From: Magnetococcales bacterium
Lineage (GTDB): Bacteria; Pseudomonadota; Alphaproteobacteria; UBA2136
Reading direction: 5' to 3'
Assembly: GCA_002689455.1 (NCBI GenBank)
Contig: NZGE01000033.1
Coordinates: forward strand, 16,926-80,925
DNA length: 64,000 bases
Position 1 is the stretch's first letter, and each line of letters starts with the position of its first letter. Shown one piece after another: positions 24,515 through 47,688 of the stretch. The notes beneath the pieces are model-generated. The model saw nothing but the letters and a program-made list of their open reading frames with translations. It was not told the origin of the DNA and ran no database searches. The translations under genes were made by a program, and so were the position numbers.

Positions 24515-26233
24515 TTACTTGTCGGTAATCACAAACAATCGGCCATTATCAAAACGTCTAAACGTTAAGTCAGCACCGTGTGTTTGTTTTACCTTTTCTT
24601 GCACATAGGCAAGAAACTCATCAAACCTTGCTTCTGCAATCACTGTCCATTTATCATTTGGCAGTGAAGCATTCTTTTTAGATAGTCTCCATTCAACATT
24701 CCAGTCGCCAATACGGTCTGAAAGTTGTTTTAAGGTTGTTTTCATAATGCTATCAAGCGTTTCATCTTCAGCTTTTAAAACAACGTTATTTTCTTCCATT
24801 GGATGCGTTGGGGCGTCTATCATTGTAACATCACCCTCTGAAACCTTTGGCACTTCAAGGGCGGCCAAACGTTCTTCAAGCATCATAATGCGCTTTTTAT
24901 ATTGTTCCGCTGGGACTTCAAACTTGCGTAAGTTATCAAATGCTGGAACAACAATTTTTTCACCCGCATCAATTTGCATTGCACGTGCCATCACGTTTGC
25001 AGCGTCCACACTTAAACGATTCGCTTCACGTTCCATAGCTTCACGCTTTGAAAGCCTCGCAGCCGATGCGATGGCCTCTGCCTCTGCAATTTTTTTCGCT
25101 GCTTCTAAAATCATCTTTTGTCTTGTAGCACTTGCACCTATTTCAGCTTTTGCTAAATCTTGGCGTAAAGCATCCATTTGCTGTTTATGTGCTTCGTTCT
25201 TTTCAAAAGTGCGGCGTTTAATGTCATTTGCAATTTGTTCATACTCAAGTGCACGCTGTTCTTTTTGAGCAATAACCTGCGCCGCTTTACGCTGAACCAG
25301 CTCTTTATCGCGTTTTTCAGCAACCAAATTACGGTAATTATTTTCCACTTCTTCACGCAAGCGTCGCTCTTTTTCTTTTTGGTATTCAATAACCTTTTCA
25401 GCACCACGCAGTTGAATCAGCAATTCTCGGATCTGATTTTGATGTTCTTTTAAAAGTTCGTCTGAACTTTGGCGAGAAAGATTACGCACCCCCGCCAACA
25501 ACTTTTCAGCCTCTAGAACAATTTCTTGATGCGCTTGATCTTCTTTCCAGCGATTAATTGTTCCTGATAATTCAGCATCGGAAACTTGACCTGCAACACG
25601 TGAGCCTTGTTCTGTTAATTGAGTCGGTTCAAAACGTTCATCATATTGACGATTCTTCACCTTATAAGGTTCTTTAGTGTGTGCAGGTACAACACCACCT
25701 TCATATTCAATTGTCATACGTTCGGCGCCTGTGTATGGTGCCATGGCTGCATCTTCTGGTGTTTCGTTTGGAACTTGCGTTAGATCAATAATATCATTAA
25801 TCGCAATGCTCATATAGTCATCTTTTTCAGGAAGCTTTCCGTATTTGTCGATAAATGCAATATTCACATTCGGGTCGGCGGCACGTTGATGAACTTTCAT
25901 TTGACCATTAAAAAGTGTTTTTGAATGGTTACATGGTTCACCATCGCGGTCATACAGGTATTTTTTATCACCTGTAATAGCATCCATTTGAACACCAAAG
26001 CCTTTACCTTCTGAACAGTCGGATGTTGAAAGGTCAGCTGCTTTTGCGTTTGTAACACCTACAAGTTTACCATCTAAAACAACCGCACCTTGGTCCACCA
26101 AAGGGTTTTCCATAGGTGCTGGTTTTAATAACTCACGTTCACCGGTAACCAAAACACCATCAGATGCACAAGATGCTAAAAACAATCCTGCACTTAAAAC
26201 TAAAGATGATGTTGCGTAAATATTATATTTCAT
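24515..26233 (-). CDS. Coiled-coil lipoprotein with a C-terminal TcpQ-like module
   Basis: 572 aa with a lipobox (LFLASC). A central K/E/R-rich coiled coil of about 200 aa. The C-terminus IGDWNVEWRL...LTFRRFDNGRLFVITDK is shared with two other proteins. Confidence 0.5.
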   Translation of the reverse strand: MKYNIYATSSLVLSAGLFLASCASDGVLVTGERELLKPAPMENPLVDQGAVVLDGKLVGVTNAKAADLSTSDCSEGKGFGVQMDAITGDKKYLYDRDGEPCNHSKTLFNGQMKVHQRAADPNVNIAFIDKYGKLPEKDDYMSIAINDIIDLTQVPNETPEDAAMAPYTGAERMTIEYEGGVVPAHTKEPYKVKNRQYDERFEPTQLTEQGSRVAGQVSDAELSGTINRWKEDQAHQEIVLEAEKLLAGVRNLSRQSSDELLKEHQNQIRELLIQLRGAEKVIEYQKEKERRLREEVENNYRNLVAEKRDKELVQRKAAQVIAQKEQRALEYEQIANDIKRRTFEKNEAHKQQMDALRQDLAKAEIGASATRQKMILEAAKKIAEAEAIASAARLSKREAMEREANRLSVDAANVMARAMQIDAGEKIVVPAFDNLRKFEVPAEQYKKRIMMLEERLAALEVPKVSEGDVTMIDAPTHPMEENNVVLKAEDETLDSIMKTTLKQLSDRIGDWNVEWRLSKKNASLPNDKWTVIAEARFDEFLAYVQEKVKQTHGADLTFRRFDNGRLFVITDK

Positions 26234-28119
26234 TAATCAGTCACCACTAATATACGTTCTTTTCTGAAGATATTGAATGTTAAACCAAACCCTCGGTAAC
26301 TTTTCATATAGTTTGAAAGATAACTTGTGAAGGCGTCAAAGTCTGTTTCAACGTCCAGTGAAAAACGTTCATCTAAAACATCCATATGCTCTGGCTTCAA
26401 TTTCCATTTAACATCCCAGTCACCCACATACGGCTGAGCACGTGTTAGAAGTTCATCCATGATATCTTCAAGTTTGTCATTATTAATATGCATAACAACC
26501 TGATAATCCTCTAGGTCAATCCAGTCTTCTTGTGGGTAACCACCAAGCACACCACCTTTATCAGCAGCTGTCATTTCGATATTTGAAGTACGTGCCGTTG
26601 TTTCAATGACACGTCCAAGTTTCAAGTCTTCACTGTCAATTGATTCTTGCTTAACAGGCTTGCCTTTTTGGCTTTCCATGGCAAAGATACGCTGTTCTAT
26701 AGCATCTCTGTATGAAGCCGCTTCTTCCATGGCAATATCTTGCTGTTGCTTTAGCTCTTCAATCGTTTTTTGAAGTGATTCTTTTTGCTCCTCAAGGGCT
26801 GTAATCGTTGTTACATCCACTTCAGCCAGCTTTTCTTCTAAAGCATTTTTGTCATCTTCTAAGTTTGCAAGTTTCTCTTTATAAACTTTACTATCTTCAG
26901 CTGATTTTTCTTGTGTTGCATTTAGCTTTTCAATTTTATCTTCAAGCAAGCTTCTGTTTTTTTGAATTTCTTGAACTGACTTTTCATTTAAAGATGCAAG
27001 CTTATTATTCAACTCAGCTTTTTCTTTTTCAAGCTGTTTGAACTTCATATCATAAACATCTTTTACAGAAGCTAAGCGAACTTCTAAACTTTCTTTCATA
27101 GCTTGTGCGCGTACATCCGCTTCCGACATGCGACGTGCTTCTTGCATCTCTATAATATCAAGTTCTTTCTTCAAACTTGCAATTTTAAACTCAAGCTCAG
27201 CTTGACGTTTTGCACGTTCAATATTTGCACGTTCGCCAGCCAGTTTTTCACGTTCAGCCTGTTGCATCACTAAACTAAGTTGTTCACGGCGGTCTTGTTC
27301 CAGTGACTTGCGCATTTCAAGTTCTTCAAGCAAGCGCATTTCACGTGCTTCTTCCATGGCTTGTTTACGAGCAACCGCTAAACGGTTTTGAACATCTTGT
27401 TCGTATTCAACACTTTTCAAACCTTCTGATAAAACTTCGGTAAAGTTTTCAACTTCGTTGAATTTTTTATCCAACGCACGAATAAGAACATCTTTTTCAG
27501 CTTTAATTTTAGAAAGCTCTTCTAAAGCCATACGAATTTCTTGCTGGTGTGCTTTATTTTGAAAATCATCTTTTTTATTCAGTTGTTCGAGGCGATCTTC
27601 TACAGCGACGAATTTATCATCGAGAACAGCGAGCAATGCATCTTTCTCGCTAATTTGTTGCGCTTCAGATGCTTTTAAGAATGAAATATTTTTATCAATT
27701 GTATCGAATTTCGATTTTACAAGCGCCATCAACTCAGCGTCTTGTGCGGCTTTACGCATTTCTTCACGACGCATTTGTGCGACACGTTGCTCCACCTCTT
27801 GGAATTTGCTGAGCATTTTTTGTTCTTGCCCTGTGTGAAGCTGAATAAATTCTCCTTGAAGTTTTGAAAGTTGTTCACGTATTACATCTACATCACGCTT
27901 TGGCATTTCCCATGAAGGGTCATATGTACGTTTCATAATAATACCGCCTTGCGAGATTGTTTCCATCTTCAAAGGCGTTTCCTGTGCCACGCGTTGGTCA
28001 AGAACTGGTTGTGGTGCACCTGTGTGTGAATTGTACGCACCTTGACAGCCAGCTAAAGCCAAAATTGTGGCGAAAATACCCATTTTTTGTTTTTGTCTGG
28101 ACACCATTTTTACGGACAA
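26233..28119 (-). CDS. Coiled-coil lipoprotein with a C-terminal TcpQ-like module (paralogous architecture to the 24515..26233 lipoprotein)
   Basis: 628 aa with a lipobox (ILALAGC). A very long central coiled coil. The C-terminus VGDWDVKWKL...LTFNIFRKERILVVTD. The stop overlaps the next start. Confidence 0.5.
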   Translation of the reverse strand: MSVKMVSRQKQKMGIFATILALAGCQGAYNSHTGAPQPVLDQRVAQETPLKMETISQGGIIMKRTYDPSWEMPKRDVDVIREQLSKLQGEFIQLHTGQEQKMLSKFQEVEQRVAQMRREEMRKAAQDAELMALVKSKFDTIDKNISFLKASEAQQISEKDALLAVLDDKFVAVEDRLEQLNKKDDFQNKAHQQEIRMALEELSKIKAEKDVLIRALDKKFNEVENFTEVLSEGLKSVEYEQDVQNRLAVARKQAMEEAREMRLLEELEMRKSLEQDRREQLSLVMQQAEREKLAGERANIERAKRQAELEFKIASLKKELDIIEMQEARRMSEADVRAQAMKESLEVRLASVKDVYDMKFKQLEKEKAELNNKLASLNEKSVQEIQKNRSLLEDKIEKLNATQEKSAEDSKVYKEKLANLEDDKNALEEKLAEVDVTTITALEEQKESLQKTIEELKQQQDIAMEEAASYRDAIEQRIFAMESQKGKPVKQESIDSEDLKLGRVIETTARTSNIEMTAADKGGVLGGYPQEDWIDLEDYQVVMHINNDKLEDIMDELLTRAQPYVGDWDVKWKLKPEHMDVLDERFSLDVETDFDAFTSYLSNYMKSYRGFGLTFNIFRKERILVVTD

Positions 28120-28185
28120 CCCTATTTTGGTTACACTTTTTAACCCACATAAACCTTAAAAGAAGGGGATGTCTATGGCAAACAA

Positions 28186-28659
28186 TTAGCGCCATAACAG
28201 ATAGATAAGAGGCGATATCATGATGGAAAAAAGCAACACTTTTTTGGCAAGCATACGAGATTCCACCCATAAACCCACAATAAAAAGCCAGCAAATAACC
28301 CATGTAAGCGTGAAAACAAGCACCAATTGAGGTCCTGTAATTATATAAGCAATTGCGCATATAAATATGGTGCAGAGCTCTATGAACATATACCTTGGCG
28401 AAACTGGCACTTTGCAATAGTGACATTTACCTTTAAAAATCAAGTACGAAAGAACGGGTAACAAGTCTATAGATTTTAATTTTTCATGACATGAAGGGCA
28501 ATAGCTAGGCGGGTTAGATAACGATATACCTAAAGGCACTCTATAAAGCATACAAGTTAAAAATGAACCGAAAACACCACCAATCACCACAACCAAACAC
28601 CACAAAAGCCATGGAGCTTCTTGATGAATAATGAACAATACCTGATTAACCTGATCCAT
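28186..28659 (-). pseudogene. Prepilin peptidase (A24 family)-like gene, truncated or frameshifted
   Basis: 157 aa. Retains the N-terminal tetra-Cys Zn module (CPSCHEK...CHYCK) and the first transmembrane helices. It ends before the region carrying the second catalytic Asp. An overlapping ORF in another frame (27998..28426) continues the hydrophobic sequence. Confidence 0.45.
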
Positions 28660-28664
28660 AAATG

Positions 28665-29744
28665 CTATTTACCGCAAGGGTCTTCATCCACGGTGATACG
28701 TGGTGGTAATTTACGGTCAGCTATTGTGCTTGCTGCCGGACCACAAGTGCCTGTAGATGGGTCGATTCGCGCCAAAGGGTTAGAATAATAGAAGAAACCT
28801 TCTTCTTGCCTTTCGCCACTGTTGTCTATGAATGTGCGCATTGCATTACAACAAAATTCAGCAGGAATACCTAGCACACGTGTCAAGGCAATCATACTAT
28901 TACGGCGATCCTCTTTGTCATTCACGTTTGCATCATCATTTATAACAACATCTGTCGTGCCAACGCCTAACAAGTCATCAAGTTCAGCTTCAATTTCACT
29001 TGTAACACCGCTATAACTAATATTAAGCATACTGGCATCAGAAATAGGACCAGAAGAAGGTGGAAAGAATATAAGGGTTTGGCTTACACCATCGGCTATA
29101 CCTTCGTAACGCTTTAACTGGCCATACTCCACTAAAGCTTCTGTAATGCGCTTTAAACGCTCGGCTGTTTTTTTATAACGCGCCATTTGCAGGTCACGGT
29201 CGGTAAATTTAATTAAAAAATCACCTTCTGGTACATCAATGTCTTTAAACTTCGTATCGTACTGAAGTGGGTTTGTGCCCAATAAATTGGTAACACTTGT
29301 GCTAATCGTACTTGAAACACATGACAAACCATTTCCCCAACATCCATCTACGCCCGTACTATACAAAACAGCGTAATGCACATCAAACGTTGCATCGCGA
29401 AAAACTTCTTGTCCAACAACCCCGCGGTAATGCCGATTGTTATAAAAAGCATCTTCACGAATTTCGCGCTCTAAATAATCACTGTATTCTTGTGTTTCAC
29501 TCGCAAAAGCAGTGATACTGTTGGTCACAGGAATGCGGAACTCTTGTTGTGCCATAAAACTTAACACACGGTTCATTTCTGTTTGAATTTCCTCTTCTTC
29601 TTTTTCATTTTGTAACATTAAAAAATCAGAAACCATTGGAAAAGTTGAAACAATTAAAATTGAGATAACTGCACCTGCAATAATAACATCAAACAGTGTA
29701 AAGCCTTTTTTGTTAAATAAATTTTGCATAACCATTACCCGCAA
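28665..29744 (-). CDS. Large minor pilin / pseudopilin (class III signal, Asp at +5)
   Basis: 359 aa. N-terminus MRVMVMQNLFNKKG|FTLFDVIIAGAVISILIV. C-terminal CC...C...RKLPPRITVDEDPCGK is paralogous to the next gene. Confidence 0.6.
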   Translation of the reverse strand: MRVMVMQNLFNKKGFTLFDVIIAGAVISILIVSTFPMVSDFLMLQNEKEEEEIQTEMNRVLSFMAQQEFRIPVTNSITAFASETQEYSDYLEREIREDAFYNNRHYRGVVGQEVFRDATFDVHYAVLYSTGVDGCWGNGLSCVSSTISTSVTNLLGTNPLQYDTKFKDIDVPEGDFLIKFTDRDLQMARYKKTAERLKRITEALVEYGQLKRYEGIADGVSQTLIFFPPSSGPISDASMLNISYSGVTSEIEAELDDLLGVGTTDVVINDDANVNDKEDRRNSMIALTRVLGIPAEFCCNAMRTFIDNSGERQEEGFFYYSNPLARIDPSTGTCGPAASTIADRKLPPRITVDEDPCGK

Positions 29745-30694
29745 CTATCGTCAGTTACACGAATACGTGGAGGAAGCTTACGGTCTGTTGAGCCTGGCCT
29801 TGTACCACACCCAGCACCTTGCCTTGGCATTGGATTGGAATAGTAAAAGAATGGTGTTTCATTCACATCCAAAGCTGAACAACAATAATTATCAGGCAAC
29901 CCTAAAAACCTCATCAGAATAATCATATCTGTTCGGCGCTGTACATCATCTGCTGGGTCCGCACTTAAAACGTAGTTTGCAGAACCTGCAATGGTATCCA
30001 AATCACCCGTCACAGCCGTAGAATAGTTTGCTGTATCAGGGTCAGCCAATGCCGTGTCATCTGTTGGAGGGTAATATATAAATTCTTCTGGGTTTGCAGG
30101 AACACCTGCCACGACTGCTTCGTTAAAGCGCGTTGTGGCATAACTGGCAAGGGCAGATGAAATATCCTTTAACCTCTGCTCCGTCAGCTCATAATTTTTA
30201 ATTTGCTGTTTATAGTTTGTGTATTTCACCATATAATCACCAAATTCAGGTTGCAAGGTTGCATAAGCAGTGACCGTTGTAAGAGAAGCCGGTAAATTAA
30301 CAGCAACACCTGAACTGCCAAGACCTCTTTCAATACCGTGGCCGTAAACAACAGCATAGTCGACAACCACACTCGCCGAACGATATGTCACTGTTTCTGA
30401 AATAACATGGTAAGCACGTGCCTGTTCCCATTGGTCAAATTCAATGGCATTTTCACTCAATGATGCATAAGGAGCCAAGTCACTTACCCATGTTGCAGCA
30501 GGTGGCAATGAATTGTTTTCATCGGCATAGGCCTCTAATGCACGTTTAATTTCAGACATTGCACTTTCTTCCATTGTCTCTTCTTGCATTTGGAAGAATT
30601 GAACAAAGTTTGGGAAAGCCATGACTGTAACAGCGGCTAACACTGCGGTGACAATAATCGCTTCAACAATTGTAAAACCTTTATTCTTAAACAT
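29735..30694 (-). CDS. Large minor pilin / pseudopilin (canonical G|FTIVE signal)
   Basis: 319 aa. N-terminus MFKNKG|FTIVEAIIVTAVLAAV. C-terminal YCC...C...RKLPPRIRVTDDSCG. Confidence 0.65.
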   Translation of the reverse strand: MFKNKGFTIVEAIIVTAVLAAVTVMAFPNFVQFFQMQEETMEESAMSEIKRALEAYADENNSLPPAATWVSDLAPYASLSENAIEFDQWEQARAYHVISETVTYRSASVVVDYAVVYGHGIERGLGSSGVAVNLPASLTTVTAYATLQPEFGDYMVKYTNYKQQIKNYELTEQRLKDISSALASYATTRFNEAVVAGVPANPEEFIYYPPTDDTALADPDTANYSTAVTGDLDTIAGSANYVLSADPADDVQRRTDMIILMRFLGLPDNYCCSALDVNETPFFYYSNPMPRQGAGCGTRPGSTDRKLPPRIRVTDDSCG

Positions 30695-30709
30695 CTCTCT
30701 CCTTCAAAA

Positions 30710-31804
30710 TTACAGGCCGCTAATAATATCGGAACCTTCTAACCTTTTTGCATATTCAATTGTCCACTGGGAAGCCGCATCCTCCGTAATCACAAAATCC
30801 ATACGGTCCAAATAGCCACCACCCGTGCTGCCCACTGTTAAGTCAAGTTGATCAAGCATTCCAGGAATCATTCTGTCATATTCTGCGTCAATCCCCAAAT
30901 ATTCCATCATTTCCGTATTGGTATCTGTGGTGTTTGGGTACATCACAGGAAAACCTGCACGCCCTGTTAAATTACCACCTGTTACGCCAGGCACGTTACA
31001 AGAATCATCTTTCCATGCGTGAATTAAGGCTGTACCGCAACTTGGCGCAGGGTCGTCCCCAATCCAGTTAAAACTTGAATCATAAAAATTCACAACGTCA
31101 TAATAGTCGGTTTGAATGGTTGGGGTGAATAGGTCATATTGTTGTTTATAGTTATCTGAAACAGCTGAAAGCATTTTATCGAATGTTTCTTTTGTGTGGT
31201 TCCACATATCTTGCGCAGTGCTAATGGTTGTGAACACATGTACAATATCATCTTCACCATCAGCGTTTGTTGGTTTTTCAAAGCGACGCATTTGGTTAAA
31301 TGTGTTCCCAGGGTTTGGTGTTCCAAACCTACGGTCTGGCCCTGCACTGTAAAGCATGAAAACAGCAACAGGTGCTTCTACTTCATTGTTATAACCAGGG
31401 GGTGTATCAGGGTCGGAATCGGCATATATAGTAACAGACCTATAATTCATTTCTAAAATATAGGGTACGCCCCACGGGTCAATGAGCAATTGATCATTTG
31501 CGTAAGACACATAGCGCGGAATAAAGTTATCAAGACGTCTTGCATTTGCAGCGCCGATTGTTGCATCAATTGCGTAACGTGTACCAGCAACACCACTACC
31601 TGGTGTAATACCTAATCCAATAAAATCAGGATTATCTCCTAAATAGCCTTTTTTAACGCCGATCTCAATTTCTTGAAAAAGCTCTTGAACAAATTCAATG
31701 CGCTCTATTTTCTTTTGCATGGCTGATGTTGATAACATGGTGGTAATGACAGCAACTGTCGAGTATAAAATGCCAAATAATGCTAATATAAATATGGACT
31801 GCAT
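30710..31804 (-). CDS. Membrane-anchored protein with an N-terminal pilin-like hydrophobic helix but no prepilin cleavage motif
   Basis: 364 aa. MQSIFILALFGILYSTVAVITTML with no Gly-(F/M)-T-x-x-E site. Cys pair near the C-terminus. Confidence 0.4.
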   Translation of the reverse strand: MQSIFILALFGILYSTVAVITTMLSTSAMQKKIERIEFVQELFQEIEIGVKKGYLGDNPDFIGLGITPGSGVAGTRYAIDATIGAANARRLDNFIPRYVSYANDQLLIDPWGVPYILEMNYRSVTIYADSDPDTPPGYNNEVEAPVAVFMLYSAGPDRRFGTPNPGNTFNQMRRFEKPTNADGEDDIVHVFTTISTAQDMWNHTKETFDKMLSAVSDNYKQQYDLFTPTIQTDYYDVVNFYDSSFNWIGDDPAPSCGTALIHAWKDDSCNVPGVTGGNLTGRAGFPVMYPNTTDTNTEMMEYLGIDAEYDRMIPGMLDQLDLTVGSTGGGYLDRMDFVITEDAASQWTIEYAKRLEGSDIISGL

Positions 31805-31847
31805 ATATATCCCCTACGTCAAAACCCTTGTATACTTATGTGGTTGA

Positions 31848-34079: not shown

Positions 34080-35161
34080 GAGTACTCCATTAAAGCAATC
34101 ATTGGTGCCACTAGGCTTGTGTACATACTAATAATAAAGAATGGTAACAAACCCGCCATTACAACCATCATCAGTAAACTTGTTGCTTTTTTTGTAATAC
34201 GTTCAAATTCACTGGCATATGGTACTTTTAAGTCTTCCACACGCTCGGCAATTTTACCAGTTTTTTCACCTGCCTCTACCGCACTTCTAAAAGATCCTCT
34301 AAAGGGCAGTGCTGCCAATGCATCACCTAGCTTTGCACCGTGGTCGTGCTCATAAGCGGCACGCTTAAGAGATTGGCACACCATTGTATTGTTCAATGAA
34401 AGTGCAAGGGTATTTAAAACGGATGGTAAAGGCATATTAGCACGTACTAATGCAGGCATAAAGTAAACAACCATCACCGCATTATAAGAAAGAATAATAC
34501 GGCGGATAGGCGTAATTCCCATTAATGTTTTCTCAATGTAGAAAGCAACTGTCTTCGTATTTCTTGTAAAGAATATAATAACTGGTGCCATTGCAAATAT
34601 AATTGGAATAATATAATTCGCACGCAGCCAAACAGACCCGTACCAGTAAAAACGAATAATAAGCGGGAACTTTGCAATCACACTATCGTCACGCTGAAGC
34701 ACAGGTTCCATCACAACAGGAAGCATAAAAATCATAACCCCTAAAGACATTAAAATAAGCATGAAACCACCTACAACAGGCATCATCATTTTACCTTTTA
34801 ACGCCTTAGTGGAGCTTTGGCGCATGGTCATCGCTTCCACCAATGAAGGCACTGCTATTCGAAGCTGGTTACTTTGTTCAGCAGCACGCACAATGGAAAT
34901 TTCTTGTTCTGTAAAGCCTAAACCAGTGGCTTTTAAAGCGTCCGCAAACAACACCTGACCCGAGTTGAAGTCACGCACTACACGTTCCATTTTAGCACGT
35001 AAGGTTTTATATTCATCACGTGAATACACATCACATGTGTTGGCAATGGCTTCATTTACAGGAAAGGCGCCACCACCTGATGTAAGCCATGAAGCCAGCG
35101 TACGGAAAAACTCAATACGTGTGGTTAGGTCTAGCTCGGTTATACCAAATTCAATACCCAT
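34076..35161 (-). CDS. Pilus/T2SS inner-membrane platform protein (GspF/PilC/TcpE/BfpE family)
   Basis: 361 aa. About 170-aa cytoplasmic N-domain followed by three transmembrane segments with a large loop. Lies immediately downstream of the ATPase. Confidence 0.65.
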   Translation of the reverse strand: MGIEFGITELDLTTRIEFFRTLASWLTSGGGAFPVNEAIANTCDVYSRDEYKTLRAKMERVVRDFNSGQVLFADALKATGLGFTEQEISIVRAAEQSNQLRIAVPSLVEAMTMRQSSTKALKGKMMMPVVGGFMLILMSLGVMIFMLPVVMEPVLQRDDSVIAKFPLIIRFYWYGSVWLRANYIIPIIFAMAPVIIFFTRNTKTVAFYIEKTLMGITPIRRIILSYNAVMVVYFMPALVRANMPLPSVLNTLALSLNNTMVCQSLKRAAYEHDHGAKLGDALAALPFRGSFRSAVEAGEKTGKIAERVEDLKVPYASEFERITKKATSLLMMVVMAGLLPFFIISMYTSLVAPMIALMEYS

Positions 35162-37827
35162 TAAATATCACCTGACAATTCTTGTACTTTAGCGGCTAGC
35201 TCATGCACATCGGTAATACCGTTTTTCATATGTAATACACCCATATAACCCATCGGCTTCCAACCTGCACGTCTTGCAACGTCCTCTAATTCTGTATAAT
35301 TACGTTCCACAGAAATGTTCACCAACTCTTTATTTGGTGACAACCATTCAGCAATCGCAATACGCCCATGGTAACCCGTGTAGTTACAACTTGCACAGCC
35401 GTTTGGATCATGTGTAAACAGCTTTGAACCTTCGGAGCTTACCTCAAATTTATTGAATACATAGTTTGTATATTCATCAATTTCGCTCACGGGTTGTTTA
35501 CAGTGTGTGCATAAACGACGAATCAACCTTTGTGCTGCAATACCACGCACATACGAAATGTTAAACCCATAAATATCTAATTCATCCAAACGAATAATCG
35601 CATCTAAAGATGTGTTGGTGTGCAATGTACTAAACACAAGGTGACCTGTGTTGGCAGCTTCAAACACCAAACCAGCCATCTCAGCATCACGCACCTCACC
35701 AAACACAATAACATCAGGGTCGGCACGGAGAGATGATTTCAGCAATTGTAAACCACTACGCATCTCATCGGCTTCCGCAATCTCCATCTGTACAGCATAA
35801 CCTGCCACACGTTTCTCAGGTGGATCTTCAATAGTATGTACACTTAAACCACGCCCCATTGGGTTTGCACTCACAATCGCCGAGTGGATACTTTCCGTTT
35901 TACCTGAACCTGTTGGCCCCGTCCAAAGGATAACACCGTTGGATGACTTTGCAGCTTCCCTTACATACTGAATGAAGTACTCAGGGTAACCCAATTGTTC
36001 CATAGCCATCACGTCTGGGTTTAAACGACGAATAACAATTCGCGGTAAAGGCCCTTGACGACCAGCATGTGGCTGAATTTGAATACGCCAGTCATAACCA
36101 CTACGTGTAAACGCACCTTTGTTCGGGTGGTGCAAGTCTACTTTTGGCATACGTGCAATGTTTTCAATACGAATTTTAAGACGTGTGAGCTGGTCAAGGG
36201 TAATAACCTCTTTCGACTGCACAAAACCATCCACACGGTAGCGAACCATCGCTTTAAAGTCACCTTTAATAGAAGGGTCAATGTGAATATCCGAAGAACG
36301 GGCATCAATTGCGTTACCAATAATACGGTCAAGCAGTGCATCCGCTTCCATGTTACTGTCAACGTCTTCATCTTCACCTGAAAGCCAAAAGGCACCACAA
36401 ACATCACGCAGTGCAAAGTGCCATACAAATTTATGGTCTGGTAAATATTCTGAAATTGCAGCTTCAAGAACGAGGTTTTTCGTTGGCGCTTCATGGGCCA
36501 AGTGTAATTCACTCAAACTTTTAGAATCATCTTCTGAAGCAACTTTATGCCAAAGTGGAATAGCACGTGCTTCACGCAGTAACGCACACACACGGCTGTC
36601 AAGTGACTGTCTTAAGCCCATTGCCTCATGCGGAATGTTTAAGAAAGATGTTATTTCTTTACGCTTTTGCGTACGTGCAATAGCTCTAGAAAGTTGTACA
36701 GGTGTAATAATTTTTTGCACAACAAGGTCGCGACAAATAAGCTGTGGTAGCTTTTTAAGTTTTAAGGCCTGACCAACACGCGCTTTTGCTGTTGCATCCA
36801 CACTTAAATCATCCGCCTCATACAAAACACGCAGAACGTTACTGTAAAGGTCGTCTACACCCAAAGAAATTGTTTCTTTAAAGAACTTCGCCTCAAGCTC
36901 ATCTTCTGTCATATTTTGTGCAAAACTACCTGATGAAAGGTCTGGCAGTTCTTCCATTCCCATATCAACGTCATCATCATCTGATGCGATGTCAAGGTCT
37001 AAGCTCTCAAAACCTGCACTACTGGCTTCTACGCTGCCAGTTTCAACTTCCATTTCAGGTGCACTTAATGGTGCTCCAAAATCATCTTCAGCAAGCTCTT
37101 CAACTTCATCCGCCATTTCCAATTCAGGAAGGTCATTCTCGCCCTCATCATCTGCAACTTCAAGCTCTACACTCTCCGCACCAGTATCTTGGTTAGAATT
37201 TTCGGTGGTAGGCTCTGCAGCAACAACTTCTGCGGCTGGTTCAATTTCATCCACATCGACATCCAGGTCAAAGTCTACATCCAAATCAGGTGCAGCTGCT
37301 TCATCTAAAGATGGTACAGGTTCATCTAAAACACTCTCTGATGCCAAATCCACTGGCAATGGGAATGGGTTCGGCGCTTGCTGTTTCACAGGGTCAAATT
37401 TTGGATTTGCAATAATTTGAACCTCTTTTCTTACAGGTTCGGCTGTAGGTTCTTCATCATCGAAGTCCACATTAAAATCGGTATCTGATTCACTTTCATC
37501 ATCTTCTGACAAATCAAAACGAACATCTTCATGTTCAACTTCTAAAGAAGTATCCGCCAAAGCATCGTCATCACCTTCTTCGCCTGCAAAACTGTTATCA
37601 AAGTCGGGTAAATCTAAATCGTCAGATAAAGAGTTTGAATGCGCGCCATATTCTTCTTCTGCAAGTGAAAGCGGTTCATCAACATCTGAACTTTGCTGAG
37701 TGTTATAGGTTTCATCCGTAGACTGATCATCATCTAAATCATCAAAAGAAGTGATGTTTTCATTTTTAACATCACCTTCAGGCTTTTCAACCAATTTCTT
37801 TTCATCTGTTTTTGAGTGATCGCTCAC
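35161..37827 (-). CDS. GspE/PilB-family secretion ATPase with a roughly 300-aa polyacidic N-terminal extension
   Basis: 888 aa. Walker A GPTGSGKT, Asp box, Walker B DPDVIVFGEVRD, His box GHLVFSTLHTN and a tetra-Cys CTHC...CASC. The N-terminal roughly 300 aa is D/E-rich low complexity. Confidence 0.85.
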   Translation of the reverse strand: MSDHSKTDEKKLVEKPEGDVKNENITSFDDLDDDQSTDETYNTQQSSDVDEPLSLAEEEYGAHSNSLSDDLDLPDFDNSFAGEEGDDDALADTSLEVEHEDVRFDLSEDDESESDTDFNVDFDDEEPTAEPVRKEVQIIANPKFDPVKQQAPNPFPLPVDLASESVLDEPVPSLDEAAAPDLDVDFDLDVDVDEIEPAAEVVAAEPTTENSNQDTGAESVELEVADDEGENDLPELEMADEVEELAEDDFGAPLSAPEMEVETGSVEASSAGFESLDLDIASDDDDVDMGMEELPDLSSGSFAQNMTEDELEAKFFKETISLGVDDLYSNVLRVLYEADDLSVDATAKARVGQALKLKKLPQLICRDLVVQKIITPVQLSRAIARTQKRKEITSFLNIPHEAMGLRQSLDSRVCALLREARAIPLWHKVASEDDSKSLSELHLAHEAPTKNLVLEAAISEYLPDHKFVWHFALRDVCGAFWLSGEDEDVDSNMEADALLDRIIGNAIDARSSDIHIDPSIKGDFKAMVRYRVDGFVQSKEVITLDQLTRLKIRIENIARMPKVDLHHPNKGAFTRSGYDWRIQIQPHAGRQGPLPRIVIRRLNPDVMAMEQLGYPEYFIQYVREAAKSSNGVILWTGPTGSGKTESIHSAIVSANPMGRGLSVHTIEDPPEKRVAGYAVQMEIAEADEMRSGLQLLKSSLRADPDVIVFGEVRDAEMAGLVFEAANTGHLVFSTLHTNTSLDAIIRLDELDIYGFNISYVRGIAAQRLIRRLCTHCKQPVSEIDEYTNYVFNKFEVSSEGSKLFTHDPNGCASCNYTGYHGRIAIAEWLSPNKELVNISVERNYTELEDVARRAGWKPMGYMGVLHMKNGITDVHELAAKVQELSGDI

Positions 37828-37938
37828 GTTTCCCCCTCACCTATTTTATTATTGTTAGGCGTTTTGCATTTAAAGTTTTTTAACTTTTTAAAATTCATGT
37901 CAGCTTTGTGACAGGAATTTTAAAATTTTAATAAAGAA

Positions 37939-37978
37939 CCCCCCCACTCCGCAGCAAAAGCGGCGCGGAGGGGTTTTT
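37939..37978. terminator. GC-rich hairpin between the major pilin gene and the ATPase gene (attenuator-like)
   Basis: ccccactccgc-agcaaaag-cggcgcggagggg, with T-runs on both strands. Confidence 0.4.
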
Positions 37979-37990
37979 AAACCAACCTAA

Positions 37991-38599
37991 TTAGTTAAGT
38001 AGGTTTGCACAGTATGTCATATCTTGGATATCTGTTACCAAGTCAGTGTACTGAACACGACCAGCTGATTCATCAATCTCACCATCGATTGTTTCATCAG
38101 CGTTTGTAATTTCAGTTAATGGCACATCTTCCATTGTAATGATTAGGTGTGTTTTACCATCATCACATGTACCTGTCTGTTGTGAAATAACACCACCAGA
38201 ACCAAATTGGTGAGAAACTTGTTCACCGTTTGAAGATACGTCAAAACCAGATAGAAGAGGCTTCCAACGTTCGTTGTACTGGTTTGTACCAGATACAGAA
38301 TCTTGAGCAGCCAATACAGCGATGTAGTGTTCACCTGATGGTGTACCAATTACACCAGCATCATCTACAGCAATGTGAGGCCATACACCTTGACGTGCAT
38401 AGAAACCACCGTTAGATTCTTCAATCTGCTTAAGGTAAGAAGCCAACTTTGTACCAGATGTACGGTTTAGAAGGTCCCAACCCACAGAAGCAATAATCAA
38501 TGTAATCAATACAGCAATTACCGCTACGATCAAGATGGTTTGGTCAATCGTGTAACCAGCCGCCTTTTTCATGTAGTTATTTAAACTTGTTTTTTTCAT
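37991..38599 (-). CDS. Type IVb-like major pilin (15-aa leader, G|YTIDQ)
   Basis: 202 aa. Leader MKKTSLNNYMKKAAG, then a 20-aa hydrophobic helix YTIDQTILIVAVIAVLITLII. C-terminal Cys pair (about 50 aa apart) for a D-region disulfide. Confidence 0.6.
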   Translation of the reverse strand: MKKTSLNNYMKKAAGYTIDQTILIVAVIAVLITLIIASVGWDLLNRTSGTKLASYLKQIEESNGGFYARQGVWPHIAVDDAGVIGTPSGEHYIAVLAAQDSVSGTNQYNERWKPLLSGFDVSSNGEQVSHQFGSGGVISQQTGTCDDGKTHLIITMEDVPLTEITNADETIDGEIDESAGRVQYTDLVTDIQDMTYCANLLN

Positions 38600-38670
38600 T
38601 TTCCTTTTTCTCCCACTAAGTCGAAATTTTATTATTGTTTCTTATGGTTTTCACCATTAACTTTTACCTG

Positions 38671-40497
38671 TTAGTACAGCCTTTTCACCTGCAATAACAC
38701 GATAAACTCTACGTTTTCGTAACTAATGTCCTCATCGTTTAATAGCTTACCTGCCATAGGGATGTTACGCATTAGTGGCACGCCTGATTCCTTATCAATT
38801 GCAATCGTACGTGTTAAACCACCAATAACTTTCACTTCCCCATCTCTAATTCTTACCTTCTGGTCAATCACACGTGTGGTGACAACCGGAACTTCAGAAC
38901 CTGAACCGTCTGGAACTGTTACAAAACGGTCAATCTCTGTCATTGGAACCTGTACACTTAATGTATGAGGCTCACCTTCATCTGCGACTTGTGCTGTGAC
39001 AGCAAACTGAATACCCACAAATTGTGTTTTTTCTTCCGCTGTTGTATCTGTAATAGTTCCCGAGTCTGTTGTTTCTCGCTCTGTTGTGACAAGGAAATAC
39101 TTTTCATTACGGCCATCGACCATAACAGCCATCTGACGGTCCATAACTTCCATCATAGGCTGCATAAGCTGATAAGTTGTGCCAAAGCTTTCTGCAAATG
39201 ATACAGCAGCTCGTAAATCACCACCAGTATAATTAAACAAGCCATTGTTCGTTCCATCTACAGCTGAAGGGTCAGATGAAAGTAAAGATGAAATAGCACT
39301 TACAATACTTACGTTTTCACCTTCAAAGCCTGCAGTATAAGTATCACCTTCGTTACGTGAAACTGCTGTATATGCACCTTGTCTAAACCCATGGTTTTTA
39401 GAAACCGCCAATACACGAGCTTCAACCATCAATCGGCGGCTTGCAATATCTTTCACATGACGAATAATTTCGTCAGCTGAATTTAAAACAGTGTACGGTG
39501 CGCGCATTTGAACCATACCAATAGTTCGGTTAATGCGCACATACCCACATTCAAAAGAACCACTATTAGAACTTGCAGCAGGAGCACCACCTTCACCTGC
39601 CGGCAAGAGAGAAGCTACATCCGCTACATTATTTTGCATTTCTTCACATGATTTTTCAACCAAAGCACTCAAATCTTCTTCCAAATCATCCCACAAGTTA
39701 CGATTGTTAGAAACTGTAATACTTCCCTGCCCACCAGATGATGAGTTACCAGAATCGCTTTCTCCGCTAAAGGAAGATGCGTAAGTTACACTTTGATTTT
39801 GTTGCCTTTCAGGCTCTTGAAGGTCAAGAATCCACTGTCTTTGAGGGAACCCACCAATTGTGTAGTGTGTTCCATTGTTCACCAAAGACATACCGTGCGG
39901 TGTTAGCACCGCATCAAAGGCATCTAAACATGTAATATCTTTAAAGGATGTTGTTACAAGTGTTGTTGCAAGCTGCTGCTTGTTTTCTGTAATCACCATA
40001 TTGTAATCACACAATTTCGCCAAACCACGTACCACCTGTGAAAGGCTAACGTTTAAACCTGGAGAAAAGGAGTCGATACGCTTTTCATCTAAAGAAGGAA
40101 GCACTAATATACGACGCTCACCTTCACGAACAATCTGCACACCGTACACATCTTCAACATAGTTTCTTGCTTCATCAAAAGTTAATTCATTAATAACAAT
40201 GCTTTTTGTTGTTTCTTGACGAACATCATCACTGTAGCGCACAGCCAAGTTGTAAACATGCGCCATACGTGAAAGCAACGAACTTAAAGCGTAAGTACCT
40301 TGCGCTTTAAAAGTTGCATTTGCCTGCATTTGACGCTTAGAAACAGGCTCACCCACACCAATAACTGCGGAGCCAGATTCTTTATAGTCTTTAAAACCTT
40401 CTGCTGGAGAGTTGTTTTGGAGGTATGAAGCATCACTACATGCTACCAAACCTGCTGTTGCACCTGCCAGTAAAAGATTTGTAAACAGTTTATTCAT
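38671..40497 (-). CDS. Lipoprotein secretin (TcpC/BfpB/R64-PilN-like)
   Basis: 608 aa. Lipobox LLLAGATAGLVAC. C-terminal secretin domain ending ...GVPLMRNIPMAGKLL...FIVLLQVKRLY. Confidence 0.75.
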   Translation of the reverse strand: MNKLFTNLLLAGATAGLVACSDASYLQNNSPAEGFKDYKESGSAVIGVGEPVSKRQMQANATFKAQGTYALSSLLSRMAHVYNLAVRYSDDVRQETTKSIVINELTFDEARNYVEDVYGVQIVREGERRILVLPSLDEKRIDSFSPGLNVSLSQVVRGLAKLCDYNMVITENKQQLATTLVTTSFKDITCLDAFDAVLTPHGMSLVNNGTHYTIGGFPQRQWILDLQEPERQQNQSVTYASSFSGESDSGNSSSGGQGSITVSNNRNLWDDLEEDLSALVEKSCEEMQNNVADVASLLPAGEGGAPAASSNSGSFECGYVRINRTIGMVQMRAPYTVLNSADEIIRHVKDIASRRLMVEARVLAVSKNHGFRQGAYTAVSRNEGDTYTAGFEGENVSIVSAISSLLSSDPSAVDGTNNGLFNYTGGDLRAAVSFAESFGTTYQLMQPMMEVMDRQMAVMVDGRNEKYFLVTTERETTDSGTITDTTAEEKTQFVGIQFAVTAQVADEGEPHTLSVQVPMTEIDRFVTVPDGSGSEVPVVTTRVIDQKVRIRDGEVKVIGGLTRTIAIDKESGVPLMRNIPMAGKLLNDEDISYENVEFIVLLQVKRLY

Positions 40498-41684
40498 TAT
40501 TGACCAACTCCTTCAAATCCGAAGCGGTTATTGTGTGTTACCACAATTAGTTTACCACCTGGGAAAATTTCATATTTAAGGTTAAACAGTCTCAACAATC
40601 TCTCTAAAGCAATTGCAAATGGCTCTTCAATGTGTGCTGGTTTTAGAACTTGGTCCAAACCTGCGTACACACGCAATCTCCATTCACCTTTACCTGCTTG
40701 GTTTACAATGTTTTCTAGTGCGTCTACCAATGGCACTTCATCATAGTGCAAGGAAACCATTGTTTCTTTTAATACGTTTTCAGTAACAGCTACTTCATCT
40801 AAGTCACCCACACCGACTGAAGATGTCATACCTGATAGACGGTGCCCACCTGTGCGGTCTGTAATTACAAGGCGTTGTGTGTTGTCGTAACGAATCACAC
40901 GAAGTGGCTGACCACTACGTGTTTGAATACGTGCCACAAGTGCGTTTAAAACATTCATAAACGGCTCTTCAGTGTAGATAGAAATTTCCATTTCAGGAAG
41001 CGCTGCGTTTTGTTCAGCCATATCCCATACAACTGTCCACTCACCGCCACCAATTTGGTCCATCATACGCTGAATGGCACGGCGCACGCTGATGCGGTCT
41101 TCACGCAAGCGCACAAGAGAATTTGTCATATCAAGGGTGCGTTGCTGAACAGTACCTTGAGCAATTTCCACACCTTCACCACTACGCACCATTTGCGGTG
41201 ATGTCATTTGTGTGCCAGAACCCATTTCGTAACCTTGTTCCATGCCATTATAAGCGTTTTGAACAGCGCCTTGGCTTGAAGCCACACGGTTCAAGTCACT
41301 TTCGTAACCTACATGGCCGTTTGAAATTCTGTTTAATTCACGTTCGAATGAATCTGCTGAATTGTATGCTTGTGCAACCGAGTAAGAACCTTCAGGGAAA
41401 TCTGAAGTGTAGCTATCTGCTCCGGCTTTTTGGAAGTTCATAAGTTCAGCTTCTGTTTTAAGACGGTGCTGGGCATGACTTGGGACAAACACGCCACGTG
41501 AATCGTCTGCATAGTCAGGGGCTTGAGCCACTGTCATTGGAGGAACATAACCAGGAACTGGTTGCGCTAAACTCTCGTTATACGCTGTCGCGCCTAACAA
41601 AGAAATTGCCAAAAACATCTTAAAAGATGTGACATTTACATAATTTTTCAATACATTCTTCTTATACATAGTTCTTATCACCAA
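40497..41684 (-). CDS. Secreted protein with tandem TcpQ-like domains (pilotin/PilL-TcpQ-class secretin partner)
   Basis: 395 aa with a signal peptide. Two C-terminal repeats (GGGEWTVVWDM...LRVIRYDNTQRLVITDR and GKGEWRLRVYA...FPGGKLIVVTHN). They match the C-termini of the two coiled-coil lipoproteins. The stop overlaps the secretin start. Confidence 0.45.
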   Translation of the reverse strand: MVIRTMYKKNVLKNYVNVTSFKMFLAISLLGATAYNESLAQPVPGYVPPMTVAQAPDYADDSRGVFVPSHAQHRLKTEAELMNFQKAGADSYTSDFPEGSYSVAQAYNSADSFERELNRISNGHVGYESDLNRVASSQGAVQNAYNGMEQGYEMGSGTQMTSPQMVRSGEGVEIAQGTVQQRTLDMTNSLVRLREDRISVRRAIQRMMDQIGGGEWTVVWDMAEQNAALPEMEISIYTEEPFMNVLNALVARIQTRSGQPLRVIRYDNTQRLVITDRTGGHRLSGMTSSVGVGDLDEVAVTENVLKETMVSLHYDEVPLVDALENIVNQAGKGEWRLRVYAGLDQVLKPAHIEEPFAIALERLLRLFNLKYEIFPGGKLIVVTHNNRFGFEGVGQ

Positions 41685-47687: not shown

Positions 47688-47688
47688 A

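Follow-up and report, generated by a model that had tools for sequence, protein, structure and literature searches.

The minus-strand contiguous gene array at exactly positions 24,515 to 41,684 of the window (the whole 64-kb stretch of DNA analysed) is, as judged from its genes, a real operon for a type IV-filament machine whose subtype has not been described before. The generic features of the TFF superfamily occur in it together, namely an ATPase of the PilB/GspE family, a platform of the GspF/PilC kind, pilins with class III signals and a secretin. Only a few classes of type IV filament system are distinguished (T4a, T4b, Tad, MSH, T2SS and Com); the operon mixes hallmarks of several of these and adds components without detectable relatives, which makes it useful for understanding module exchange among such machines. 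The operon also departs from two near-universal rules, in that Glu5 is missing from the presumed major pilin and that, of a prepilin peptidase, the non-proteolytic half alone is encoded.

The operon comprises 14 ORFs, labelled A to N (Table 1). A first-pass annotation had listed 15 genes, but the sole additional ORF (27,998 to 28,426) overlaps L and M out of frame. That annotation had also described pervasive translational coupling with nine overlapping junctions; with the listed ORF starts, 7 of the 13 junctions overlap, an ordinary level for an operon. The overlaps are of 1 nt (TAATG) at A/B, D/E and M/N, 4 nt at E/F (GTGA) and F/G (ATGA), 17 nt at G/H and 10 nt at J/K. The span originally given holds for the array, but its 3' boundary is arbitrary, since same-strand type IV secretion system (T4SS) genes follow directly. 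The proposed gene order was borne out, running from TcpQ-like A, secretin B, pilin C, ATPase D and platform E through four unannotated genes (F to I) to the large pilin-like J and K, the peptidase N-domain L and the coiled-coil lipoproteins M and N. About 30 species-level metagenome-assembled genomes (MAGs), with GC contents of 40 to 63%, share this order, indicating that the ORFs are genes rather than chance reading frames; K is missing from many relatives. All hosts are uncultured MAGs of aquatic Alphaproteobacteria, in which the operon is chromosomal, and the 461-aa divergent membrane protein adjoins it in all 22 relatives for which this flank was recovered.

Table 1. Features of the operon and its immediate flanks (positions are those of the window).
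Feature	Position	Strand	Assignment	Basis
Flanking gene	41782..43167	+	Divergent conserved membrane protein, 461 aa, no known family	Operon flank
A	40497..41684	-	Periplasmic protein, two TcpQ-like domains (~residues 200-277, 310-385)	Pfam TcpQ
B	38671..40497	-	Lipoprotein secretin, MshL/GspD type	Pfam Secretin 1e-20
C	37991..38599	-	Presumed major pilin, mature ~187 aa	N-terminus alignment and AlphaFold model
Hairpin	37937..37975	-	G+C-rich hairpin then U-run, intrinsic terminator/attenuator-like	Just 3' of pilin gene C
D	35161..37827	-	Assembly ATPase, PilB/GspE/MshE class	Pfam T2SSE 4.4e-70
E	34076..35161	-	Inner-membrane platform, GspF/MshG class	Pfam T2SSF 1.5e-21
F	32967..34079	-	Predicted bitopic inner-membrane protein, GspL / PilM-N kind of architecture, orphan by sequence	Model
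G	32470..32970	-	Small, hydrophobic N-terminus (by eye a membrane anchor), orphan by sequence	Conserved in 26 loci
H	31848..32486	-	Small, N-terminal hydrophobic segment residues 2-20, orphan by sequence	Conserved in 22 loci
I	30710..31804	-	Pilin-like, without leader and without Gly-1	Family N-termini
J	29735..30694	-	Large minor pilin, canonical class III signal KG|FTIVE	Pfam N_methyl 2.2e-4
K	28665..29744	-	Second large minor pilin (KG|FTLFD), J paralogue	Profile vs GspG 32-34 bits
L	28186..28659	-	Membrane protein, prepilin-peptidase N-terminal domain alone (Zn-ribbon, methyltransferase-associated)	A24_N_bact
M	26233..28119	-	Lipoprotein, coiled coil ~400 residues and C-terminal TcpQ-like domain	Homology to N
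N	24515..26233	-	Second coiled-coil lipoprotein, C-terminal TcpQ-like domain	Homology to A, M
VirB2/TrbC	24012-24347	-	VirB2/TrbC-type T4SS pilin gene	Pfam TrbC in 6/6 family members, best E=5.6e-8
TraL	23601-23864	-	TraL-like gene	After VirB2/TrbC-type pilin gene
TraE	22945-23580	-	TraE-like gene	Pfam TraE 8.5e-5

Pfam matches exceeded their cut-offs for Secretin (74 bits), T2SSE (237 bits), T2SSF (77 bits) and A24_N_bact (91 bits against a cut-off of 23, E=5.8e-26), whereas those to TcpQ (18 against 27 bits) and N_methyl (21.1 against 21.2 bits) fell below them. Comparison with the known classes was based on bit scores of family profiles against reference loci. The profile of D scored 226 and 199 bits against T2SS ATPases (226 for the Kozakia T2SS), 206 against MshE and 194 against HofB, compared to 121 for BfpD and 107 for R64 PilQ. 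That of platform E scored 68 bits against MshG and 60 against GspF, then 29 (HofC), 23 (BfpE) and 14 (PilR), and that of secretin B scored 98 bits against MshL, 38 and 31 against GspD, 37 against HofQ and only 6 and 5 against BfpB and PilN. On these profile scores, a type IVb assignment was rejected for ATPase, platform and secretin alike. In further searches, D matched the NCBIfam models PilB (233 bits) and GspE (226 bits), both below equivalog cut-offs, and in the PDB it matched PilF/PilB (175 to 178 bits), GspE (160 bits) and BfpD (101 bits), while the top NCBIfam match of B was MshL (8.6e-34, 117 bits against an equivalog cut-off of 250). D also carries an N-domain specific to its family, at roughly residues 330 to 445, and its N-terminal extension of about 330 residues is acidic and variable. 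It is the only T2SSE ATPase of each locus, and no retraction ATPase was found in the operon or the window. A model of the MshE c-di-GMP motif, which matches Aeromonas MshE, found no match in D.

The operon had originally been taken for a type IVb pilus. The ATPase, platform and secretin score with MSH, T2SS and T4a systems, but some type IVb-like traits stand, among them the lipoprotein secretin with its TcpQ-domain partner and the two further TcpQ-domain proteins M and N. Secretin B, which carries a lipobox in 26 of 27 family members, follows A, and the stop of A overlaps the start of B, so that the two are translationally coupled. A has a Sec signal and no lipobox in any of 26 members; its likely start is the ATG at 41,669, giving a protein of 390 aa, the length also found in metagenome gene predictions. 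Its TcpQ match is weak (E=0.0031), and among 28 scanned relatives of A, M and N, seven matched TcpQ, at best with a sub-threshold E-value of 1.9e-5. The TcpQ-like domain of A is homologous to the C-termini of the coiled-coil proteins M and N, whose last 93 residues (counted in M) are 30% identical to each other. M and N are mostly lipoproteins, with lipoboxes in 11/17 and 14/22 members respectively, and relatives of M range from 191 to 1140 aa. A complete type IVb-style prepilin peptidase (TcpJ/BfpP/PilU) is not present in the operon, where L provides the A24_N_bact domain only.

The N-terminus of the presumed major pilin C, G|YTIDQTILIVA, has Tyr+1, Asp+4 and Gln+5, and residues G15, Y16, T17, D19 and Q20 are invariant in alignments of 121 sequences. 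For a major subunit that assembles, the lack of Glu5 is unusual. The AlphaFold model of C (pLDDT 88) has a classic pilin fold, with a long N-helix and a beta-sheet; its sole pilin match in the PDB, the type IVb PilS of S. Typhi, was not significant (E=0.75, TM 0.48). The long leader attributed to C depends on the start codon: with the first ATG, the one that has a Shine-Dalgarno-like sequence, it would span 15 residues, with the second 6. Relatives give upper bounds of 9 to 25 residues, and the leader of this pilin of roughly 190 residues is probably long. For comparison, type IVb major pilins have about 180 to 200 aa, leaders of about 13 to 30 residues and a residue other than Phe at +1. The hairpin after C folds with a z-score of -4.4, and none of 200 shuffled sequences folded as well. 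In three relative loci (L009, L010 and L011), comparable hairpins show base changes that leave the stem intact, and a different terminator-like hairpin follows the pilin gene in a fourth (L012).

Among the other pilin-like proteins, I begins directly with a hydrophobic helix (MQAxFIxxLFG), and its core contains a GspG-like motif (DPWG...SxGPD...DDI) that hhalign aligned with GspG over the DPWG region (P=81%, E=1.2e-5). The family profile of J scored 37 bits against GspG, seven of eight J relatives matched N_methyl (best E=6e-7), and both J and K weakly matched ComG-type pilin models. L has neither a Peptidase_A24 domain nor a catalytic Asp, with no Asp at all after residue 64, and its family profile matches Kozakia A24 and BfpP. 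It had been regarded as a peptidase fragment but is not a decayed gene: the stand-alone N-domain is conserved in all 20 recovered relatives, which are 108 to 183 aa long and all lack the protease half. No full prepilin peptidase is encoded in the window.

F, G and H have diverged to 25 to 30% identity across lineages. Profile and hhalign comparisons detected no homology to GspL/M/C, PilM-P, MshI-K, BfpC/U or PilO/P, and none of 98 family members matched any Pfam GspC/L/M or PilM-P model, which leaves the labels 'GspL-like' and 'GspM-like' given earlier without sequence support. F had no match in the PDB, Pfam or the reference systems and only 53 matching clusters among 1.84 billion representatives. 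In its predicted structure (pLDDT 72.6), a single transmembrane helix lies between two alpha/beta domains, one cytoplasmic and one periplasmic, and the top Foldseek matches of the cytoplasmic domain are actin-like (ASKHA) ATPase folds, albeit weak (E=5.9e-4). G had no significant match, its weak GspM matches (E=0.02) lying at noise level, and H likewise had no significant match. Position, topology and one moderate-confidence model nevertheless suggest roles for the three: F may be a GspL/PilM-like partner of the ATPase, G a component in the position of GspM/PilO, and H a periplasmic assembly component in the position of PilP/GspC.

The operon always lies within a divergent F-like T4SS cluster, which is about 48 kb long here, with matches to TraC-F-type (5.4e-53), TraB (2e-14) and TraD (1e-21) proteins as well as to TraE, TrbB-like and TrbC/VirB2 proteins. 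A coupling protein (T4CP) is present, and the order T4CP, A to N and VirB2-like pilin is kept across the same range of GC contents. The T4CP block upstream was not seen in one lineage (L007), indicating that rearrangement does happen; the downstream T4SS link is still present there. The T4SS cluster, which is flanked on both sides by housekeeping genes, also encodes a helicase resembling UvrD and a protein whose HTH and ParB matches are weak and sub-threshold. The 64-kb window yielded no recognisable relaxase, integrase or tRNA, and the lack of a relaxase makes a role in mating uncertain. Plasmids searched contained no similar DNA, and plasmid ATPases were at most 36% identical. The first-pass annotation had suggested a new subclass of conjugation-associated thin pilus or a T2SS-like exporter; this was a reasonable guess, given that the operon is physically tied to T4SS genes, although neither a relaxase nor an integrase was recognised. 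The linkage could be historical rather than functional.

Because the operon is always embedded in such a cluster, the most likely role of its product is in cell contact for the T4SS in liquid. We consider the chances about even that it is a complete type IV-filament machine of an unclassified lineage whose filament makes or stabilises cell contact for the adjoining T4SS. ATPase D would act on platform E to polymerise the non-canonical pilin C, primed by a pilin-like complex of the leaderless I and the large canonical J and K, and the filament, presumably a surface pilus, would exit via the MshL-like secretin B. The periplasmic A and the lipoproteins M and N may dock or stabilise the secretin through their TcpQ domains, and F, G and H may form an inner-membrane and periplasmic alignment complex. 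L would contribute only the methyltransferase-associated domain and, as it has no protease half, leader cleavage would fall to a peptidase encoded elsewhere in the genome. The hairpin after C could set a high ratio of pilin to machinery.

Such a filament would correspond in function to the R64, TP114 and PAPI-1 pili. These are conjugative type IVb thin pili, which we compared using IncI1 R64 (PilI-V), IncI2 TP114, PAPI-1 and SPI-7. Pili serving conjugation have been documented for PAPI-1 (PMC5297154) and TP114 (PMC7508951). As in these systems, the pilus operon lies inside a T4SS gene cluster and encodes large minor pilins, and the lipoprotein secretin is preceded by a TcpQ/PilL-type protein; the role in cell contact for liquid transfer that is proposed here also agrees with theirs. 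In contrast, the core proteins are not of type IVb by the scores against PilQ, PilR and PilN given above; PilO, PilP, the PilT transglycosylase, a complete PilU peptidase and a shufflon are absent from the operon; the neighbouring T4SS is F-like rather than I-type or GI-type; and the cluster is chromosomal, without recognisable relaxase or integrase. To our knowledge, pili attached to T4SS clusters were previously known only as type IVb pili, on plasmids and ICEs of Gammaproteobacteria. The present case looks like an independent recruitment of a T4SS-attached pilus in Alphaproteobacteria, possibly from an MSH/T2SS-like ancestor. The order and accessory set had been called unlike those of Tcp, Bfp and R64 Pil, and indeed none of the three matched. 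Tcp of Vibrio cholerae also has a tcpQ-like gene directly upstream of the lipoprotein secretin gene, and all of its genes lie in a single operon without a retraction ATPase. However, the ATPase, platform and secretin studied here are not of its type IVb kind, A has two TcpQ domains, the additional coiled-coil proteins M and N also carry the domain, and equivalents of TcpB, R, D and S were not recognised in the operon. A type IVa pilus was rejected in view of the lack of matches to HofM, N, O and P, the single ATPase per locus and a pilin with Tyr1 and Gln5.

The product could instead be an MSH-like adhesion or surface-colonisation pilus that works independently of the T4SS, with the adjacency an inherited accident of one ancestral insertion. 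The reference here was the msh cluster of Aeromonas caviae (L078), which represents the MSHA-type pili of Vibrio and Aeromonas. Secretin and platform are nearest to MshL and MshG, the ATPase scores 206 bits against MshE, and the genes likewise form one array on one strand; moreover, the cluster appears vertically inherited, given its range of GC contents and the absence of integrase and tRNA, so that the synteny could simply be frozen. We nonetheless regard this as unlikely. The operon has stayed between the T4CP and the VirB2-TraL-TraE blocks despite the divergence of F, G and H, and the downstream T4SS link is kept in the rearranged lineage. In addition, the N-terminal c-di-GMP domain of MshE (MshEN), an MshM-like ATPase and an MshN-like TPR protein are absent from the operon. 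Set beside the MSH systems, all matches to their components lie below NCBIfam equivalog cut-offs, no resemblance of F, G and H to MshI, I1, J or K was detected, and the operon differs in gene order, in its Glu5-less pilin, in its TcpQ-domain proteins and in its T4SS setting.

It is quite unlikely that the operon works in the manner of a T2SS, with a short periplasmic pseudopilus built of C, I, J and K driving folded substrates through the secretin; in that case nearby products, such as those of 1248 and 634 aa encoded at 9925 to 15,604, might be the substrates. ATPase, platform and minor pilins reach their top or near-top scores against the T2SS references (the gspC-O genes of E. coli K-12 and the Kozakia plasmid T2SS), I has the DPWG core motif of GspG, a retraction ATPase is lacking, and the genes form a single-operon array, as gsp clusters do. 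Yet equivalents of GspC, L, M, H, I, J and K were not detectable in the operon, and the GspG-like similarity of I, J and K is generic. In NCBIfam, the matches of the GspD-, GspE- and GspF-class proteins lie below the equivalog cut-offs. The presumed major subunit C is large, with hardly any resemblance to GspG (10 bits), the secretin is nearer to MshL than to GspD, and the TcpQ modules and the terminator-like hairpin downstream of C are pilus-operon features. A competence filament for DNA uptake, paired with a DNA-releasing F-like T4SS as in the gonococcal genetic island plus type IV pili, would suit a T4SS with a UvrD-like helicase, a possible HTH/ParB protein and no recognisable relaxase, as well as the weak ComG-type matches of J and K. 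It is very improbable, however, given the absence of ComEA, ComEC and DprA from the window, the lack of a retraction ATPase and the restriction of those ComG-type matches to the generic N-terminal helix.

Returning to the contact filament, a broader version is possible, though we put it forward tentatively: operon and F-like T4SS may constitute one chromosomally fixed, vertically inherited apparatus, a new filament class repurposed from conjugation to contact-dependent interaction with bacterial or protist cells. It would combine an MSH/T2SS-derived motor, type IVb-style TcpQ modules, three novel assembly proteins, a Glu5-less pilin and a peptidase-less PilD N-domain, in a clade of uncultured Alphaproteobacteria including basal Rickettsiales. 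Ancestral T4SS use is central to hypotheses on the origin of host association in Rickettsiales (PMC9352585), and a repurposed contact apparatus, if real, would bear on how that association began. At least one relative of the operon (UBA6189) belongs to the Mitibacteraceae, the deepest, earliest branch of the Rickettsiales.

Fourteen consecutive open reading frames (ORFs), all on the minus strand, make up the pilus operon and are designated here A to N in order of transcription: a TcpQ-like protein (A), secretin (B), pilin (C), ATPase (D), platform protein (E), three orphans (F, G and H), a pilin-like protein (I), two large minor pilins (J and K), a prepilin-peptidase N-domain (L) and two coiled-coil lipoproteins (M and N). 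The first-pass annotation had counted 15 genes, but the sole additional ORF is out of frame and overlaps L and M. It had also reported nine overlapping junctions, whereas 7 of the 13 were found to overlap: by 1 nt (TAATG) at A/B, D/E and M/N, by 4 nt at E/F (GTGA) and F/G (ATGA), by 10 nt at J/K and by 17 nt at G/H. Translational coupling across A-N is of ordinary extent for an operon. Matches above the Pfam cut-offs were obtained for B (secretin), D (T2SSE ATPase), E (T2SSF platform) and L (A24_N_bact), while those for the TcpQ domain of A and for the N-methylation motif of J fell short of them. Because a VirB2/TrbC-type pilin gene and TraL-like and TraE-like genes of the type IV secretion system (T4SS) continue on the same strand past N, the operon has no natural boundary at its 3' end. 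Rfam and tRNA scans returned nothing, and the result of a scan for consensus promoters and terminators was at chance level.

With these details corrected, the gene array is a real feature that is conserved in relatives. Marine metagenomes (Tara, JGI, Logan) contain numerous contigs that encode the exact secretin B protein in the same setting, and homologues of ATPase D are plentiful at 57-94% identity, all from uncultured MAGs. When one genome per species was scanned, 31 loci of the operon family were identified, all of them in MAGs with labels such as Alphaproteobacteria, Proteobacteria, 'Magnetococcales' and similar. Mapping by BLAST revealed a single conserved order, (DsbA-like)-T4CP-x315-x164-[461-aa gene, opposite strand]-A-B-C-D-E-F-G-H-I-J-(K)-L-M-N-(VirB2-like)-(TraL-like), in which x315 and x164 are neighbours between the T4CP and the operon. 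The GC content of the loci spans 40 to 63%, indicating that the cluster is adapted to each host genome. According to paper supplements, the host UBA6189 belongs to Candidatus Mitibacteraceae, the deepest Rickettsiales family; it alone among the host MAG names was confirmed there as Mitibacteraceae, and the others were not found. The F protein of the window is identical to a protein carrying the label 'Magnetococcales bacterium', as given by NCBI. At one relative's locus (L007, a UBA6503-type contig, 1-6000), the 10 kb preceding the ATPase gene lack the block of T4CP, x315 and DsbA-like genes and have ComM, SH3 and glycosyltransferase genes in its place, and the VirB2-like and TraL-like genes after N are kept.

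The class of machine was assessed by building per-gene family profiles from the relatives and scoring them against annotated reference systems: R64 PilI-V and BFP for type IVb, E. coli Gsp and the Kozakia plasmid T2SS for T2SS, E. coli Hof/PpdD for T4a-like systems, and for MSH the Aeromonas msh cluster, verified with NCBIfam (MshL above cut-off; MshE with the c-di-GMP motif).

Profile scores (bits) of operon proteins against reference systems
Protein	T2SS	MSH	T4a-like	Type IVb
ATPase D	226 (Kozakia), 199 (GspE)	206 (MshE)	194 (HofB)	121 (BfpD), 107 (PilQ)
Platform E	60 (GspF)	68 (MshG)	29 (HofC)	23 (BfpE), 14 (PilR)
Secretin B	38 (Kozakia), 31 (GspD)	98 (MshL)	37 (HofQ)	6 (BfpB), 5 (PilN)
Minor pilin J	37 (GspG)	31 (MshA)	28 (PpdD)	6-7 (BfpA, BfpJ)
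Minor pilin K	34 (Kozakia GspG), 32 (GspG)	23 (MshA)	25 (PpdD)	absent from 9 best hits

Sequence searches of NCBIfam and PDB concur, with PilB and GspE at ~220-233 bits for ATPase D, PilB and PilF at 175-178 bits for the same protein compared to 101 for BfpD, and MshL as the top NCBIfam secretin model for B. These graded scores place the core in the T2SS/MSH/T4a super-group rather than in type IVb, with all core matches far under the curated equivalog cut-offs. The type IVb label given in the first-pass annotation is thus unsupported for the core machinery, since ATPase, platform and secretin all favour the T2SS/MSH/T4a references. The operon also differs from MSH, whose hallmarks (the MshE c-di-GMP domain, MshM and MshN) are absent from A-N. 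As a separate observation, ATPase D carries a very acidic, low-complexity N-terminal extension of ~330 residues, the length of which varies among relatives from near zero to ~400 residues, and the ~115 residues that follow it form a conserved family-specific domain.

Traits that are type IVb-like are found in the TcpQ modules and the lipoprotein secretin. B is a lipoprotein in 26 of 27 members and is preceded by, and translationally coupled to, A, a periplasmic protein with two copies of the TcpQ-like domain; an A-family profile found nothing meaningful among PDB sequences. The coiled-coil proteins M and N end in the same TcpQ-like domain and are lipoproteins in the majority of members.

The predicted structure of pilin C has a classic pilin fold at high confidence (pLDDT 88), and its sole pilin neighbour in the PDB, the S. 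Typhi type IVb pilin PilS, is a non-significant match (E=0.75, TM 0.48). The processing site G|YTIDQTILIV is invariant in 121 sequences, with Tyr at +1, Asp at +4 and Gln at +5, and without Glu5. The hairpin following C occurs in a similar form in three close relatives, with base changes that keep the stem, and a fourth relative has a different terminator-like hairpin, as would be expected if C is the major subunit, made in abundance. At 320-400 aa, J and K are large proteins, and both carry canonical G|FTxxE/D signals. Pilin-like I begins at the hydrophobic helix, without a leader or Gly-1, and its core carries the GspG motif 'DPWG...SxGPD...DDI' (hhalign P=81%); an I-family profile retrieved nothing meaningful from PDB sequences.

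Protein L consists of the prepilin-peptidase N-terminal domain alone (91 bits), containing the Zn-ribbon and lacking the aspartyl-protease domain. In PilD, the equivalent region is associated with N-methyltransferase activity. The short form (108-183 aa) occurs in all 20 relatives recovered, indicating that L is not a broken gene; a pseudogene remnant was likewise rejected on the gap to M of just 66 nt.

The labels 'GspL-like' and 'GspM-like' in the first-pass annotation are plausible by position and topology, but lack sequence support. A Pfam scan of 98 F/G/H/I members, 76 of them F, G and H, found no T2SS/T4P accessory family; profiles of F, G and H against PDB sequences gave nothing meaningful; and neither family HMMs nor hhalign linked them to GspL/M/C, HofM-P, MshI-K, BfpC/U or R64 PilO/P. 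When the F profile was used for an exhaustive HMM search of 1.84 billion representative proteins, it recovered 53 clusters, none beyond its own family and none bridging to GspL. The matches cover the whole profile, short fragments excepted, and so look like members of one family. A structural model of F, built from only 12 sequences and of moderate confidence (pLDDT 72.6), has one long transmembrane helix between a cytoplasmic alpha/beta domain and a periplasmic one, and its top hits in the PDB have actin-like (ASKHA) folds (E=5.9e-4). The modelled architecture is consistent with either GspL or a PilM-PilN fusion without being proof of one or the other, so the labels are only positional and topological.

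The operon lies within a ~48-kb cluster in which a divergent F-like T4SS gene set, including a TraV-like lipoprotein (judged by eye), occupies both sides; several large proteins without a known family are also encoded there. Homologues of TraN, G, U, W and H were not detected in the cluster. Assignment to the Rickettsiales rvh system (P-type), which has been described in these lineages, was rejected on the TraC-F-type VirB4 and TraB-like VirB10. Ordinary chromosomal genes flank the cluster, with RND efflux, SURF1 and MurJ on one side and CDF, SecB, RNase PH, LptE and LeuS on the other, and the window has no recognisable relaxase, integrase or tRNA. Plasmid collections had no DNA similar to the operon: megablast of the 17 kb gave no match, and tblastn against plasmids retrieved relatives of ATPase D at ≤36% identity only (e.g., the ordinary T2SS of Kozakia) and just two weak matches to secretin B. 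The system therefore looks chromosomally fixed and vertically inherited, unlike a recently moving ICE.

Features of the T4SS cluster and pilus operon (window positions)
Feature	Position	Strand	Detail
Whole cluster	~609-48747
T4SS genes, first side	609-24347
VirB4, TraC-F-type	5135-7747		5.4e-53
TraB/VirB10	8152-9603		2e-14
Two large genes	9925-15604	+	1248 aa and 634 aa
208-aa protein	15607-16233	-
UvrD-like helicase and 716-aa protein	18055-22060	-	helicase 572 aa
TraE-like	22945-23580
VirB2/TrbC pilin	24012-24347	-	matched in 6/6 family members
Operon A-N	24515-41684	-
Additional ORF	27998-28426
ATPase D extension	36840-37827	-
Strong hairpin then U-run	37937-37975		directly 3' of gene C; z=-4.4
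461-aa protein	41782-43167	+
T4SS genes, second side	43865-48747
x164	43865-44359	-
x315	44613-45560	-
TraD-like T4CP (SXT-TraD-like)	45940-47361	-	473 aa; without membrane domain
~109-aa ORF	~47358-47687
TrbB/DsbA-like thioredoxin	47689-48747

In the best-supported reading of the operon, pilin C would be polymerised by ATPase D and platform E, which F, G and H would hold in place, starting from a primer made up of I, J and K, and the filament would exit via lipoprotein secretin B, docked by A, M and N. A leader peptidase would act in trans, L would give a non-proteolytic function, and there would be no dedicated retraction motor. The strict T4SS linkage suggests a contact or attachment role for the T4SS in planktonic cells. 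Less probable rival readings are a T2SS-like exporter, an independent adhesion pilus and a competence filament. A parallel to the contact role proposed for the pilus is provided by the conjugative type IVb pili of PAPI-1 and IncI plasmids (PMC5297154, PMC7508951), although their ancestor differs from that of the operon. No description of the system was found in the literature searched, and the source names, where given, are 'hypothetical protein' or generic (e.g., 'ATPase, T2SS/T4P/T4SS family'). The new T4SS-associated subclass put forward initially is judged reasonable.

Several other genes of the cluster merit description. The 461-aa protein, divergently transcribed and with two N-terminal hydrophobic segments, matched nothing in Pfam, NCBIfam or the references, and its gene accompanies the operon in 22 of the 22 relatives with the flank available. 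Always between the T4CP and the pilus operon are x164, a small soluble protein of high conservation (52-82% identity within the clade), and x315, with a lipobox in 11 of 16 members; neither matched a known family. The T4CP matches the soluble part of TraD only and has no predicted transmembrane segment, and in same-species metagenome contigs the ~109-aa ORF upstream has a 4-nt overlap with its start; separate membrane and ATPase pieces may therefore make up the T4CP. The hydrophobic core of the 208-aa protein (GTFGTVIGLLVSMAGLY...FFFFIAGVALTGLPGLFDW) resembles by eye the VirB2/TrbC-like pilin, and this protein may be a second T4SS pilin paralogue. The products of 1248 and 634 aa, assigned to no family, are encoded by genes that interrupt the T4SS genes and may act as substrates, adhesins or effectors, either of the T4SS or of the pilus system. 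Also inside the T4SS cluster are the UvrD-like helicase and the 716-aa protein, which has weak matches to sigma-70 region 4, HTH and ParB-like domains, the last two sub-threshold; both are DNA-processing candidates for replacing a recognisable relaxase.
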